Shown here in pieces: positions 1 to 48,793 of a DNA stretch of 64,000 nucleotides. The stretch covers positions 1 to 64,000 of the IMG/VR virus record IMGVR_UViG_3300012987_000001; one strand, 5' to 3'. Position 1 is the first letter of the stretch. Every line of letters starts with the position of its first letter. This DNA is from a virus. The notes under the pieces are model-generated. The model was given only the letters and a program-made list of their open reading frames with translations. It ran no database searches and had not been told where the DNA came from. The position numbers and the translations under genes were made by a program.

Positions 1-120
1 CAGCACGCTCAACGCCGAGTCGCGGGAGACCAGCACGCTCAACGCCGAGTCGCGGGAGACCAGCACGCTCAACGCCGAGTCGTGGGAGACCAGCACGCTC
101 AACGCCGAGTCGCGGGGGTA
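1..120 (+). repeat. Tandem direct repeat, 30-bp unit (CAGCACGCTCAACGCCGAGTCGCGGGAGAC), about 4 copies, cut by the window edge
   Basis: Copies 1-30 and 31-60 are identical, 61-90 has one mismatch, and 91-120 diverges in its last 4 nt. The period is a multiple of 3 and in frame with the downstream ORF, encoding the decapeptide STLNAESRET. Confidence 0.95.
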
Positions 121-45775: not shown

Positions 45776-46467
45776 TCTTCGGACTCCACTGGATCGGCGT
45801 CGTAGCGGCTGGTGCCTGGATCAGTGATCGGCATAGCGAGCCCAAACCCGCTCGGCTTTGGGTTCGTCCAGTCGAGCGGCCCAATCGCCGGTAGCGCCTT
45901 CAGCGCCCAACTCGGCGTGGACTCGTCCGGATCGGCGACCCCGCGCGCGCGCCGGATCGCGCACTCGCTCGACGCAAACTCGTTGCGCAATTCGTGCGGT
46001 AGGTTGCACCACATCTCAAGCGTTCGCCCGGGCGCCATCGCAATCCACTTGTCGGCGGCGATGGTCCAATCGACCGAGAACCAGGCGCGTGGACCGATTG
46101 GGATATCGACAATAACCAGAGGTCCCGGAGCGTTGCCTACTTGCTCCGTATCGGCTGCATTCTTCTGCCGACCCCATGCCTGCACAAACGCAACTTCCTG
46201 CCAGTCTGGGTCGCACACTGTGTCACCGATCGGCCATTCGAAGACTGATGCCTGCCTGATGCTCCACCCGTCACGCTCGAAGTCGTACTCGATGCGGATG
46301 TCATCGGCCGCGCGCACGTCGACCAGGCCGACTATCACTGCGACCGGGTTATCGAAGCTCCGCGGGCTGTCGGGATCGTTCTTGCTTCTCGGGTACCACA
46401 GATCAACCGAGAGCGTGTCGTCTCGGAAGCGAAGGTCACCTGGTGCCGTTGGCTTTTCTTTCATCAT
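45772..46467 (-). CDS. Hypothetical protein (231 aa)
   Basis: M23 of ORF 45772..46533, with an ATGA overlap with the DnaB stop. Confidence 0.6.
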   Translation of the reverse strand: MMKEKPTAPGDLRFRDDTLSVDLWYPRSKNDPDSPRSFDNPVAVIVGLVDVRAADDIRIEYDFERDGWSIRQASVFEWPIGDTVCDPDWQEVAFVQAWGRQKNAADTEQVGNAPGPLVIVDIPIGPRAWFSVDWTIAADKWIAMAPGRTLEMWCNLPHELRNEFASSECAIRRARGVADPDESTPSWALKALPAIGPLDWTNPKPSGFGLAMPITDPGTSRYDADPVESEE

Positions 46468-47906
46468 CTCTCCCTCCAATCGTCGGGTGGTTCGTGGCTC
46501 TGCTGCTGCTGATAATCGAAGCTTGCGCCCCACTCGTCGTGCTCGTCCGCCGGCTCTTGCGTGTCGACGTACTTCGTCGCTTTCGGAATGAACTCGACGT
46601 TCACGGTGCCAGATCTGCCCGCGCGCGCCTTCGCGACAATCAGTTCGCCCTTGTTGTCCTTGGTGTCGCCGGGCTTTCGGTACTGATCTTCGCGGTACAG
46701 GAAAATCACGTTGAACGAGTCCTGCTCAATCGCTCCGGAAGAGCGCAAATCGCCAAGGTTAGGCCGCTTATCAGCGCGCTTCTCGACTTCGCGATTCAGC
46801 TGCGAGAGTAGCACGATGGGCACGTCGAAGTCCTTCGCCACCGCGCACAATCCGCGCATGACGTGCTCAAGCTGGTCGTTCGTGTTCATGCCTCGCGGCA
46901 GATCTCCGAAGCCCATCAACTGCAGGTAGTCGATCGCGACGATCCCCAATCGCACCGGAAACAGTGATCGCTGGTGGCGCCTCAGCGCAGATCGGATCTC
47001 GGTCACCGTGATCGATGCCTTGTCATCGATGATGATCGGCATCTGCCGAATCGCGTTCGCTGAGTCCATAACCTTCACGAGATCCGGACCGCTGATGACG
47101 CCGGTGTCGATGCTGCGCGTATCGACCAAAGACCACTGCGCCATGAGCTTGTTGCCGATCTGATCCTTCGGCATCTCGAGCGAGAACATCACGCCGCCCG
47201 TGGCCTCGCTGTTGTCGCTTGCGCCTTGGACGAGCAGCTCGGTGACGAACGAAGTTTTGCCCATGCCAGGACGGGCGGCGACCGTCGTCACTGTGCCGCG
47301 CTTCAGGCCGGCAATGAGCCGGTTCAGCCCCTTGTAAGGTGTGAGTTTGCCGCTTGGGATCTCACCGCGGCGCTTGCGGTGCAGGTCCGCAATGCAGCCG
47401 GTCAAGATGTCTTTGACGCGCGCGCCAGTCTCCGTGCGCACGCTATCCTGGCTGATGGCGTACATCTGCGATTCGGTCGCCTCGATGAACGCCTGCACGT
47501 CTCCGACGTCCGGCCCGTATCCCGTGGCCTCGACGCGCTGGCAAAGGGCGATCAACTGCCGAAGGCGGTACTTCTCGCGGATGCGTTTGGCGTGCGGCGC
47601 GACGTTGGCCACCGACGGCACGCAGTCCGACAGCATCGCGATGTAGGGCGTGCCGCCGATCTGATCCAGCCGGCCGGCGTCCCGAAGCCAGCCGGCGACG
47701 CTCACGTAGTCGACCGGCTTGCCCGTCGCCTGCAGTGCGAGCGCCGCTTCGTAGATCCGCCGGTTGGCGTCGGCGTAGAAGTGCTCGGGGCCCAAGATCT
47801 CGGAGGCAACCAACAGGGAGTCGGGGTCGAGCAGGGCAGCCGAGAGCACGGCGGCTTCGGCGTCGAGGTCCGAAGGCGGGACGCGACCGGGGGCGGGGGC
47901 GCTCAT
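46464..47906 (-). CDS. dnaB: Replicative DNA helicase DnaB
   Basis: Track ORF (480 aa). The N-terminal motif is PPSDLDAEAAVLSAALLD. Walker A is ARPGMGKTSF, followed by DYLQLM and RSSGAIEQD. Confidence 0.93.
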   Translation of the reverse strand: MSAPAPGRVPPSDLDAEAAVLSAALLDPDSLLVASEILGPEHFYADANRRIYEAALALQATGKPVDYVSVAGWLRDAGRLDQIGGTPYIAMLSDCVPSVANVAPHAKRIREKYRLRQLIALCQRVEATGYGPDVGDVQAFIEATESQMYAISQDSVRTETGARVKDILTGCIADLHRKRRGEIPSGKLTPYKGLNRLIAGLKRGTVTTVAARPGMGKTSFVTELLVQGASDNSEATGGVMFSLEMPKDQIGNKLMAQWSLVDTRSIDTGVISGPDLVKVMDSANAIRQMPIIIDDKASITVTEIRSALRRHQRSLFPVRLGIVAIDYLQLMGFGDLPRGMNTNDQLEHVMRGLCAVAKDFDVPIVLLSQLNREVEKRADKRPNLGDLRSSGAIEQDSFNVIFLYREDQYRKPGDTKDNKGELIVAKARAGRSGTVNVEFIPKATKYVDTQEPADEHDEWGASFDYQQQQSHEPPDDWRER

Positions 47907-48793
47907 TGGAGCCTCGCTGGCGCTGGCGGCGGCTCGGAACGGCGCTCGGGTCGTCCGGCACCGAGATCGCTCGCTGGTGGGGCAGCCAGTGGCCCGCGCT
48001 GTGCCAGCCTAGCGATCCTTTGCGCCTCAGCTCGTTGCTCAGCCGCTAGAGCGCTCGCGCGCCGTCGCGCAATCTCGTCGGGATTGGGAGCAGCGACCGA
48101 GAGAGTTTGCTGATGACCGCCGCCGCGCTCTTTGCGCCACTTCACCGCGTTGACCAACCGCGTCGTGAACGTGCCGTTCCAACTCGCCGCGGTGCGACCT
48201 TCCGCCCAGGCGACCAGGCCAACGACCTCAAGGTCCAGATCCAGCCCATGCTGCGCGCAGAACGCGCGGTGCTTGTCCGTTGGCACGAACGGGTTTGGGA
48301 TCGGGAGCTCTGGAAGTACCGGTCGTCTTTTTCGCCCCTTGGGGGGCTTAGGGGGATCCTCTGCTAGGCTAGGCTTGGCTAGGCTAGGAGTGACAGGTTG
48401 TGACTCGCTGTGACTAGAGGTGACATCTGTCACGTTTTCACCAAGCGCGTCACCACGCCTTTTGTCTCGTGATTCCCGCTGCCTAGCGCGATCTGAGCGC
48501 CGACAACTCTGCGCGTGAACGAACTTCGGCCAGACCAACTTGCCATCGCGGAGCACCCACGTGCGGGACTTAAGTAGTCGTTCTAAGCCAACCGTCGTGA
48601 CGTGCTCAGGTACGCCAGTGACGAGTGTGACAGCCTGTGACGGATCGTGACCGTCGCAGTCGAACACACCGGCACGATCGAACTTCCCGTGAAGCATCAA
48701 CGCGAGGACGGTCTGACCTTCCCACCCGAGGGCGCGCCAACTCACGGTGTCCCGTGTGTAGTAGCGAACGTAGTCTTCGTCTTCGTAATTCAC
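47903..48793 (-). CDS. Replication initiator / replisome organiser-like protein containing iteron clusters
   Basis: Track ORF 47903..48823. The GTG at 48793 gives a GTGA overlap upstream. It lies directly upstream of dnaB and carries phased GTGAC repeats. Confidence 0.6.
   Translation of the reverse strand: MNYEDEDYVRYYTRDTVSWRALGWEGQTVLALMLHGKFDRAGVFDCDGHDPSQAVTLVTGVPEHVTTVGLERLLKSRTWVLRDGKLVWPKFVHAQSCRRSDRARQRESRDKRRGDALGENVTDVTSSHSESQPVTPSLAKPSLAEDPPKPPKGRKRRPVLPELPIPNPFVPTDKHRAFCAQHGLDLDLEVVGLVAWAEGRTAASWNGTFTTRLVNAVKWRKERGGGHQQTLSVAAPNPDEIARRRASALAAEQRAEAQRIARLAQRGPLAAPPASDLGAGRPERRSEPPPAPARLQ
48390..48433 (+). repeat. Iteron cluster A: GTGAC x4 at exact 10-bp spacing plus one inverted copy
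   Basis: GTGAC occurs at 48390, 48400, 48410 and 48420, with GTCAC at 48429. Positions were calibrated against codons of the overlapping ORF. Confidence 0.7.
48618..48651 (+). repeat. Iteron cluster B: GTGAC x4 at 9-10-bp spacing
   Basis: GTGAC occurs at 48618, 48627, 48637 and 48647. Confidence 0.7.

Follow-up and report, generated by a model that had tools for sequence, protein, structure and literature searches.

The window analysed in this work is a stretch of 64,000 nucleotides, the first 64 kb of the 66,839-bp IMG/VR virus record IMGVR_UViG_3300012987_000001, which is rated complete. It carries a putative replication-initiator gene that contains two arrays of the pentamer GTGAC, one of them adjoined by a tract of short repeats, and that lies directly upstream of a gene for a DnaB-type replicative helicase (Table 1). 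The GTG start of the initiator gene overlaps the stop of an upstream open reading frame (ORF) of 80 aa (GTGA), and its own stop overlaps the ATG of dnaB (ATGA); the initiator gene is translationally coupled to dnaB. No loader gene lies between the two, and the 253-aa ORF that follows dnaB matched no family in Pfam or PHROG. The succession of initiator and dnaB is also found in the related loci L012, L013 and L016.

In array A, GTGAC starts on the plus strand at 48390, 48400, 48410 and 48420, with a spacing of exactly 10 bp, and an inverted GTCAC stands at 48429. On the coding strand the array reads GTGAC-N4-GTCAC and then three further GTCAC, and it codes for the beginning of a disordered linker (peptide NVTDVTSSHSESQPVT). 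Array B, about 200 bp away in the same gene, has GTGAC at 48597, 48618, 48627, 48637 and 48647 and encodes the peptide GHDPSQAVTLVT...HVT. The pentamer tract, an CTAGGCTAGG-type repeat, lies one base from the last iteron of array A; on the coding strand it reads CCTAG..., with the peptide PSLAKPSLA. A first-pass annotation made from the letters alone had placed both clusters inside the ORF directly upstream of dnaB (47903–48793), had given the positions of cluster A as four phased copies and the inverted one at 48429 and those of cluster B as the four copies from 48618 on, and had noticed a direct repeat beside cluster A. The sequence bears out all of this, the direct repeat being the five tandem pentamers, and adds an inverted GTCAC at 48449, the fifth copy of array B at 48597, and a one-mismatch GTGAT at 48469 (20 bp on, in phase). 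Thus 11 exact GTGAC/GTCAC words and one degenerate site are contained in the 262 bp from 48390 to 48651, where less than one exact word is expected.

Table 1. Features of the initiator locus (window coordinates; AF2, AlphaFold2; pLDDT, predicted local distance difference test score).
Feature	Coordinates	Strand	Remarks
Array A	48390..48473	+	Four direct GTGAC, inverted GTCAC at 48429 and 48449, degenerate GTGAT at 48469; all in 10-bp phase
Array B	48597..48651	+	Five GTGAC; GTCAC on coding strand, gene nt 143–197; within winged-helix coding region
Short-period tract	48364..48388	+	Pentamers CTAGG CTAGG CTTGG CTAGG CTAGG in tandem
Putative initiator (replisome-organiser-type) gene	47903..48793	-	296 aa; motif reads GTCAC on coding strand
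Winged-helix N-terminal domain	48506..48745	-	Residues 17–96; AF2 pLDDT > 90; order H-H-E-H-H-E-E
Basic helix	48446..48493	-	Residues 101–116, RRSDRARQRESRDKRR; helix in AF2; directly upstream of array A
Disordered linker	48299..48445	-	Residues 117–165; AF2 without secondary structure, pLDDT 53–78
C-terminal three-helix domain	48128..48277	-	Residues 173–222; AF2, mean pLDDT 79 in separate model
dnaB-type replicative helicase gene	46464..47906	-	Pfam DnaB E 3e-26, DnaB_C E 5e-71

The two words occur 174 times in the window (about one per 368 bp) and 182 times in the whole genome. The phased pair GTGAC-N5-GTGAC, with an expectation of 0.18 and a maximum of 2 in 100 shuffles, is found five times in the window, and all five matches fall at this locus. 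The first-pass annotation had made its origin reading depend on the pentamer not being equally frequent and phased elsewhere, and the count shows that it is not. Simulating the whole genome 300 times with a Markov model never gave a 262-bp segment with more than 6 sites, against the 11 observed. GTCAC/GTGAC is the most clustered of the 512 5-mer pairs in the 66.8-kb genome (Poisson 3e-10), and the second most clustered is CCTAG/CTAGG, at 48364, the word of the neighbouring tract.

Selection maintains the repeats as DNA, and not for the protein that they encode. The core of 72 phased units, taken from 11 genes, falls 28 times in frame 0, 20 times in frame 1 and 24 times in frame 2; since the 10-bp period is not a multiple of three and all three frames are used, the arrays are DNA elements and no peptide repeat. 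Neighbouring units are 10 bp apart 51 times and 9 bp apart 4 times; their core is invariant and their flanks are weakly conserved. Read in three frames, the core gives the recurrent peptides VT, [GS]H and S[QH]. When the window's gene was resampled synonymously under the codon usage of the phage, 3.07 GTCAC were expected and 9 are observed; for phased pairs the expectation was 0.4, with a maximum of 4 in 5000 trials, and 6 are observed.

The codons tell the same. Over array B, same-amino-acid codons are identical in 54 of 61 comparisons with eight relatives (89%), against 181 of 403 (45%) elsewhere in the N-terminal domain (Fisher P 4e-11, a value that exaggerates the significance, the relatives not being independent, though the difference itself is evident). 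The codons GGT, TCA, CCG and GTC of array B recur unchanged in 7/7 to 8/8 relatives; GGT and TCA, each kept in 8/8, make up only 17% of the Gly and 8.8% of the Ser codons of the genome. The strand is also constrained. Repeated every 10 bp, GTGAC puts TGA in all three frames, so that arrays of three or more can sit in genes only with GTCAC on the coding strand, and this is the orientation of all 117 ORF-embedded arrays among the database matches listed (L024–L142), which are described below.

The conservation of the locus was followed in 21 loci, ten from IMG/VR and the metagenomes of the Joint Genome Institute (JGI) and eleven obtained by exact protein look-up; a single-protein scan of viral contigs and a genome-contig scan returned no related loci. 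A linker array of at least three sites is present in all 16 relatives of the N-terminal domain for which the linker region was available, with protein identities from 88% down to 31%, and one of these phages (L013) has a G+C content of 44%. The linker arrays form unbroken runs of 3–10 sites, and the most distant match, L021, has eleven, all 10 bp apart. Array A often opens with the palindrome GTGAC-N4-GTCAC (peptide VTDVT) and closes with GTCAC-TC(C/T)T, after which the short-period tract begins. A tract of period 4–7 follows the array in 15 of 16 loci, with L002 as the exception and L014 read by eye; nine loci (L014 included) have a period of 5, four a period of 4, two a period of 6 and one a period of 7, and the tracts score far above the 99th percentile of the background. 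Array B is restricted to a sub-clade, where it stands at gene nt +143/+153/+163 (L002, L003, L008–L012 and L014), and the members outside the sub-clade have longer or doubled linker arrays. At the protein level, the peptide footprint of at least three phased GTCAC was recognised in 164 of 197 family proteins (about 83%), at a median residue of 122, and in none of the shuffled controls.

The partner of the repeats within the gene is indicated by exchanges of modules. Locus L016 (JGI 3300072492, contig Ga0642625_01380, 3001–3903) belongs to a sister phage, in which the upstream 78-aa protein is 87% and DnaB 93% identical to those of the window. The N-terminal 164 residues of its initiator are unrelated to the window's and the last 18 residues are identical. 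L016 has no GTCAC array, just one inverted copy; in roughly the same places as the window's arrays it carries two clusters of another repeat (CTCGCGAG), with CTCGCG(AG) at +173/+184 and at +365/+386/+407. Since L016 keeps its neighbours and loses the arrays together with the N-terminal module, those two neighbours are excluded as readers of GTCAC. Other genes have been recombined in similar ways. L020 joins an HTH_36 N-terminal domain to the same C-terminal domain and has ACCAGTGTC linker repeats and then (GAAGAGATCCAA)x3; L019, with another N-terminal domain and the window's C-terminal domain, has GTGGAC repeats and then a purine-rich repeat. YdaU of the Rac prophage has its C-terminal half in common with the L024-type gene, a different N-terminal domain (DUF1376-type by name only) and one GTCAC word with no array, whereas phage Evi shares the N-terminal half of the L024-type gene and has two GTCAC arrays. 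Judging from these loci, it is the N-terminal module that the repeats accompany, rather than the neighbouring genes or the C-terminal domain. This co-variation is the key evidence that the product would recognise repeats in its own gene, and L016 appears as a natural swap of specificity.

Two genes of cultured phages were read by eye. In the Klebsiella phage vB_Kpn_RAH1 (L022:1743-2462), a gene annotated as 'DNA replication protein O' has three linker repeats CCCCTATGCCA(T/C)C, and in the Salmonella phage S107 (L023:1587-2297) a 'primosomal protein I' gene has four repeats CCCCTGTGCC / CCCCTGTGCCGCC. On inspection by eye the products seem HTH_36-like at the N-terminus; at the C-terminus, their domains match the DnaT-like region of the homologue P0071 in tblastn. 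In this pair the design appears to be the same, with iterons of another sequence.

The pentamer tract is closely followed by a stretch of 24 nt at 48335–48358 (minus strand, GATCCCCCTAAGCCCCCCAAGGGG), which is identical in L012; L019 has it with one changed base (…CCCAGGGGG), although its N-terminal domain is another. Exchanges of N- and C-terminal modules may have their junction here.

The GTCAC grammar extends beyond these relatives. A scan of IMG/VR for the exact pattern of four GTCAC at 10-bp spacing returned at least 119 contigs. The chance expectation for four phased copies in viral contigs, by a rough estimate that was not computed, is well below one. Among the matches listed, 117 of the arrays lie within an ORF, and the hidden Markov model (HMM) of the window-type N-terminal domain matched 11 of these 117 ORFs; most of the ORFs belong to families starting WLRLWHDMPNDPKW or WFRWHHGSVNDPKF, which include Escherichia phage Evi. 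Two arrays are present in 48 of the 119 contigs listed, mostly 240–320 bp apart. The DNA pattern alone was the criterion for these contigs, and 18 of those listed have a DnaB-like ORF that starts 56–1753 bp downstream of the array on the same strand. In 86% of 44 non-redundant ORFs with an array, a very basic stretch lies ahead of it.

The gene of phage Evi has GTCAC arrays at +129 to +160, in the N-terminal domain, and at +389 to +430, after a basic helix, followed by GATACAGATAAA repeats. In RefSeq, the Evi-type gene is named 'phage replisome organizer' or 'DnaT-like ssDNA-binding domain-containing protein'. When aligned by hhalign with the basic helix included, the window-type and Evi-type N-terminal domains gave a probability of 84.6% (E 6.8e-6, 79 columns) and are probable remote homologues. 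No open-access paper was found that pairs GTCAC with iterons or describes GTCAC arrays.

One relative places the winged helix in another setting. P0058 (176 aa; L145:2892-4348, JGI 3300085376) is a window-type winged helix fused to an HNH nuclease, without basic helix or arrays. The next gene encodes a different initiator, with five GTGAC on the coding strand of its linker at a spacing of 11–12 bp (four gaps of 12 bp, one of 11); a DnaB_C helicase gene comes next. Phage ICP1 has an origin-directed nuclease, Odn (PMC8263062), which this fusion brings to mind, and P0058 might target rival origins.

The build of the protein encoded by the window's gene was taken from an AF2 model (mdc9d8aef5ca2) made with 74 homologues. 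A search with the full model in Foldseek returned winged helices of the CRP/FNR, MarR and GntR types as the best hits, with weak E values of 0.08–0.6. The basic helix that follows the winged helix is the most conserved stretch of the family, with Q95, D101, R104 and R109 invariant or nearly so. The linker region houses array A and the pentamer tract, and array B is coded inside the winged helix; in the linker alignment, the sole conserved items are the footprint peptides of the repeats. The C-terminal three-helix domain is followed by a long helix. N-terminal domains of this family form at least 2,441 clusters at 50% identity (E ≤ 1e-3).

Homologues matched 'replication initiation protein' families of PHROG, P0071 matching phrog_1408 over its full length. 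The DnaT family of Pfam (PF17948) was matched by 9 of the 74 homologues, with 26.7 bits for P0027 (cut-off 25) and 24.3 bits for P0071. The window's C-terminal domain has no direct PF17948 match of its own; it aligns to the DnaT-matching stretch of P0071 and would be DnaT-like by this transitive, indirect similarity. A Foldseek search of the domain model against PDB found no DnaT chain and nothing significant, the domain being small and its alignment shallow. The separate domains of the window's protein matched nothing in Pfam even at E up to 10, and no solved structure matched the whole family or the C-terminal domain by sequence. Searches of cultured phages (blastn and tblastn, INPHARED included with tblastn) and of plasmids found nothing similar to the window's region or protein. 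Taken together, the winged helix, the disordered linker and the apparently DnaT-like C-terminal domain, with dnaB adjacent, are the build and context of a phage replisome organiser.

Then, we propose that the two arrays and the short-period tract are probably the replication origin of this phage, organised in the manner of lambda O and SPP1 G38P and read by the N-terminal part of the protein that the gene itself encodes. The first-pass annotation had suggested a lambda-O-style origin inside the initiator gene, and the comparative evidence supports it through the selection on DNA, the conservation, the exchange of the repeats along with the N-terminal module, and the gene's build and surroundings. 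From the sequences we infer the binding partner, the start of replication, the place of melting and the loading of DnaB. In the proposed mechanism, the N-terminal part (winged helix 17–96 and basic helix 101–116) would read the 5-bp core GTCAC. With the sites one helical turn apart, four to five protomers would be arranged head to tail along the same face of the helix at each array, array A opening with the palindromic pair GTGAC-N4-GTCAC. Bridging between the two arrays, which lie about 200 bp from each other, could give a wrapped complex like the O-some. Through the flexible linker the C-terminal DnaT-like domains would reach nearby DNA, act on it and deliver the DnaB of the phage, the product of the next, translationally coupled gene.

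Lambda and its Stx-phage relatives offer one close parallel. The lambda origin lies within the O gene (PMC7466680), and the window resembles this layout in having iterons in the middle of the initiator gene, a reader that would be N-terminal, a specificity that changes with the N-terminal module and a probable assembly of several protomers. The two differ in the sites: lambda has four longer O-binding sequences and an AT-rich tract, while the window has a 5-bp core, head to tail, in two arrays, and no AT-rich tract, and the short-period repeats occupy the position that the AT-rich tract has in lambda. In addition, lambda needs P to bring the DnaB of the host, whereas the window's phage encodes a DnaB right after the initiator with no loader between. 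Neither the window's protein nor any of the 74 homologues matched Phage_rep_O of Pfam, and by the tests run the protein does not appear to be a homologue of lambda O.

In phage SPP1, oriL lies within gene 38 (PMC6316719). Its product gp38 (G38P) binds direct repeats in its own gene, with a DnaB-family helicase just downstream (PMC6316719), as proposed for the window. SPP1 differs in having an AT-rich unwinding element, the separate loader gp39 and a second origin 13 kb away, while both arrays of the window are in one gene. The Pfam family Phage_rep_org_N (PF09681) was not matched by the window's protein or the 74 homologues; two Evi-type relatives scored 20.1 and 17 bits, below the cut-off of 23.3. 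A further close likeness is that of the 'Primosomal protein I' gene of phage Evi and the 'phage replisome organizer' genes of E. coli prophages, which share the GTCAC core, the two arrays and the short-period tract; they are unlike the window in their hosts (enterobacteria, and a probable myxobacterium for the window) and in their C-terminal domains. The DnaT C-terminal domain of E. coli, like the one predicted for the window's protein, is a small three-helix domain placed C-terminal to a flexible linker. The E. coli domain assembles on single-stranded DNA into a filament with two bases at each interface, and it presumably aids the recruitment of DnaB/DnaC (PMC4132743, PMC13377028). Unlike in DnaT, the window's domain is fused to a predicted sequence-specific reader of double-stranded DNA and not to the DnaT N-terminal domain.

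Some observations weigh against the origin proposal. The window's product has no match of its own in Pfam, PHROG or NCBIfam. No AT-rich unwinding element was found in the gene region: its lowest 60-bp G+C (in 20-bp steps) is 0.50, where the genome averages 0.63, and the spots of lowest G+C in the genome are at 57.8 and 58.6 kb. The minimum of the cumulative GC skew is near 50–52 kb; it may merely reflect gene orientation and was not used as evidence. The repeats of the genes with exchanged N-terminal parts are modestly supported, with uncorrected P values of 1e-4 to 2e-6. Finally, two results do not pin the reader down within the N-terminal part: an HMM of the short basic helix matched nothing outside the window-type family, and the L101-type and L074-type families have the array with about 35 N-terminal residues and the basic stretch. 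The array being kept in families with about 35 residues before the basic stretch favours the basic helix as the reader; the natural fusion of a winged helix to HNH in P0058, on the other hand, favours the winged helix as the targeting module.

Single-strand hairpins over array A and the tract are no better than in shuffled sequences (z -1.85). Between the arrays, at 48569–48589, the conserved peptide GLERLLK is coded with the rare A/T-ending codons TTA, CTA and CTT, of which TTA makes up 0.9% of the Leu codons of the window's phage. This patch has about 43% G+C, and the relatives are not consistently A/T-rich there; it might serve as a weak unwinding spot.

Since the DnaT C-terminal domain forms filaments on single-stranded DNA, a two-step mechanism like that of DnaA is conceivable. 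The initiator would be a one-chain analogue of DnaA, which docks on GTCAC and whose DnaT-like C-terminal domains form a filament on one strand of the tract (CNNAG x5). Such a filament could melt a G+C-rich origin without an AT-rich element and load its own DnaB without a loader. The tract would then be a single-strand element read by sequence, comparable to the DnaA-trios or the 13-mers of plasmid origins, and the basic helix, rather than the winged helix, might read the GTCA(C) core. We consider this version speculative and unlikely to hold as a whole.

Four other explanations of the arrays were weighed against the proposed origin. In the first, the arrays bind the product of their own gene for regulation, as a roadblock, an autorepressor site, or a fork barrier or switch, and the origin lies elsewhere. 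The missing AT-rich block beside the arrays would fit such a role, gp38 at oriR of SPP1 has been proposed to stall forks (PMC6316719), and the genome holds another strong array, of 30 bp in about seven copies, at the record junction. However, iterons in the linker-coding part beside a helicase gene are the layout that in lambda and SPP1 has been tied to origins by experiment, and two arrays 200–290 bp apart with a repeat tract recur in distant relatives. No promoter or promoter-like site was found within or just upstream of the arrays, and the 30-bp repeats are read in frame within an unrelated ORF. A purely regulatory role is judged distinctly improbable.

The junction array was also considered as an origin in its own right and was rejected on the same ground, its position in frame in an unrelated ORF. 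The tandem repeat CAGCACGCTCAACGCCGAGTCGCGGGAGAC spans the junction of the record (window 1–116 and genome 66734–66839) within an ORF of about 280 aa with ESRETSTLNA-type peptide repeats; the preceding ORF has a DPAWKF motif and looks by eye like an MT-A70-like methylase. The 76-bp 'direct terminal repeat' of the record is wholly inside the 30-bp array, and this terminal repeat may merely reflect the assembly of a circular or permuted genome.

In the second explanation, GTCAC is read by another factor, a separate phage protein or a conserved host protein, and the arrays hitch-hike with the N-terminal module. The same core and spacing indeed occur with very different N-terminal parts, including the two families with about 35 residues, and the hosts span from enterobacteria to the probable myxobacterium. 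Against this stand L016, in which the two neighbours are retained and the arrays vanish with the N-terminal module, which excludes those two proteins, and the probable remote homology of the window-type and Evi-type N-terminal domains. GTCAC sites phased at 10 bp are not known for any host factor, and we judge a foreign reader to be still less probable than a regulatory role.

The third explanation denies the repeats any binding function and takes them as by-products of slippage or as a recombination 'linker' at the module junction. The C-terminal domains are swapped just after the array region, the 24-nt stretch described above is shared by L012 and, with one difference, by L019 across the swap of N-terminal domains, and the period of the tract varies as that of slippage products does. 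But slippage yields identical units, and here the units have in common only the 5-bp core, with 5-bp spacers that vary. That core is still present where protein identity has fallen to 31% and in a phage of 44% G+C, the synonymous sites are frozen over the cores only, and array B is in a folded domain, far from the junction. An origin of this kind for the arrays is very improbable. The last explanation, chance or the side effect of a repetitive peptide, can draw on the VT dipeptides, which alone give about three GTCAC in the window's gene, and is refuted to the point of being negligible by the shuffles, Markov simulations and codon resampling, which never match the observed phasing, by a 10-bp period that is not a multiple of three and uses three frames, and by the at least 119 viral contigs with four exact phased copies.

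The design proposed here is textbook; of most interest are a 5-bp/10-bp grammar common to phages of soil and of E. coli, the swap of modules, and the missing AT-rich element. The N-terminal domain defines a large family for which Pfam has no model, and the module swap of L016 would be a clean test system for origin specificity. The lack of both an AT-rich element and a loader gene raises the question of how such an origin would be melted, and bears on the role of DnaT-like domains outside replication restart. Four or more GTCAC on the coding strand, spaced by 10 bp after a basic helix, may be taken as a marker of a probable origin, and this rule would allow a simple annotation of origins and initiators in uncultivated phages and prophages, from those of soil myxobacteria to those of E. 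coli.

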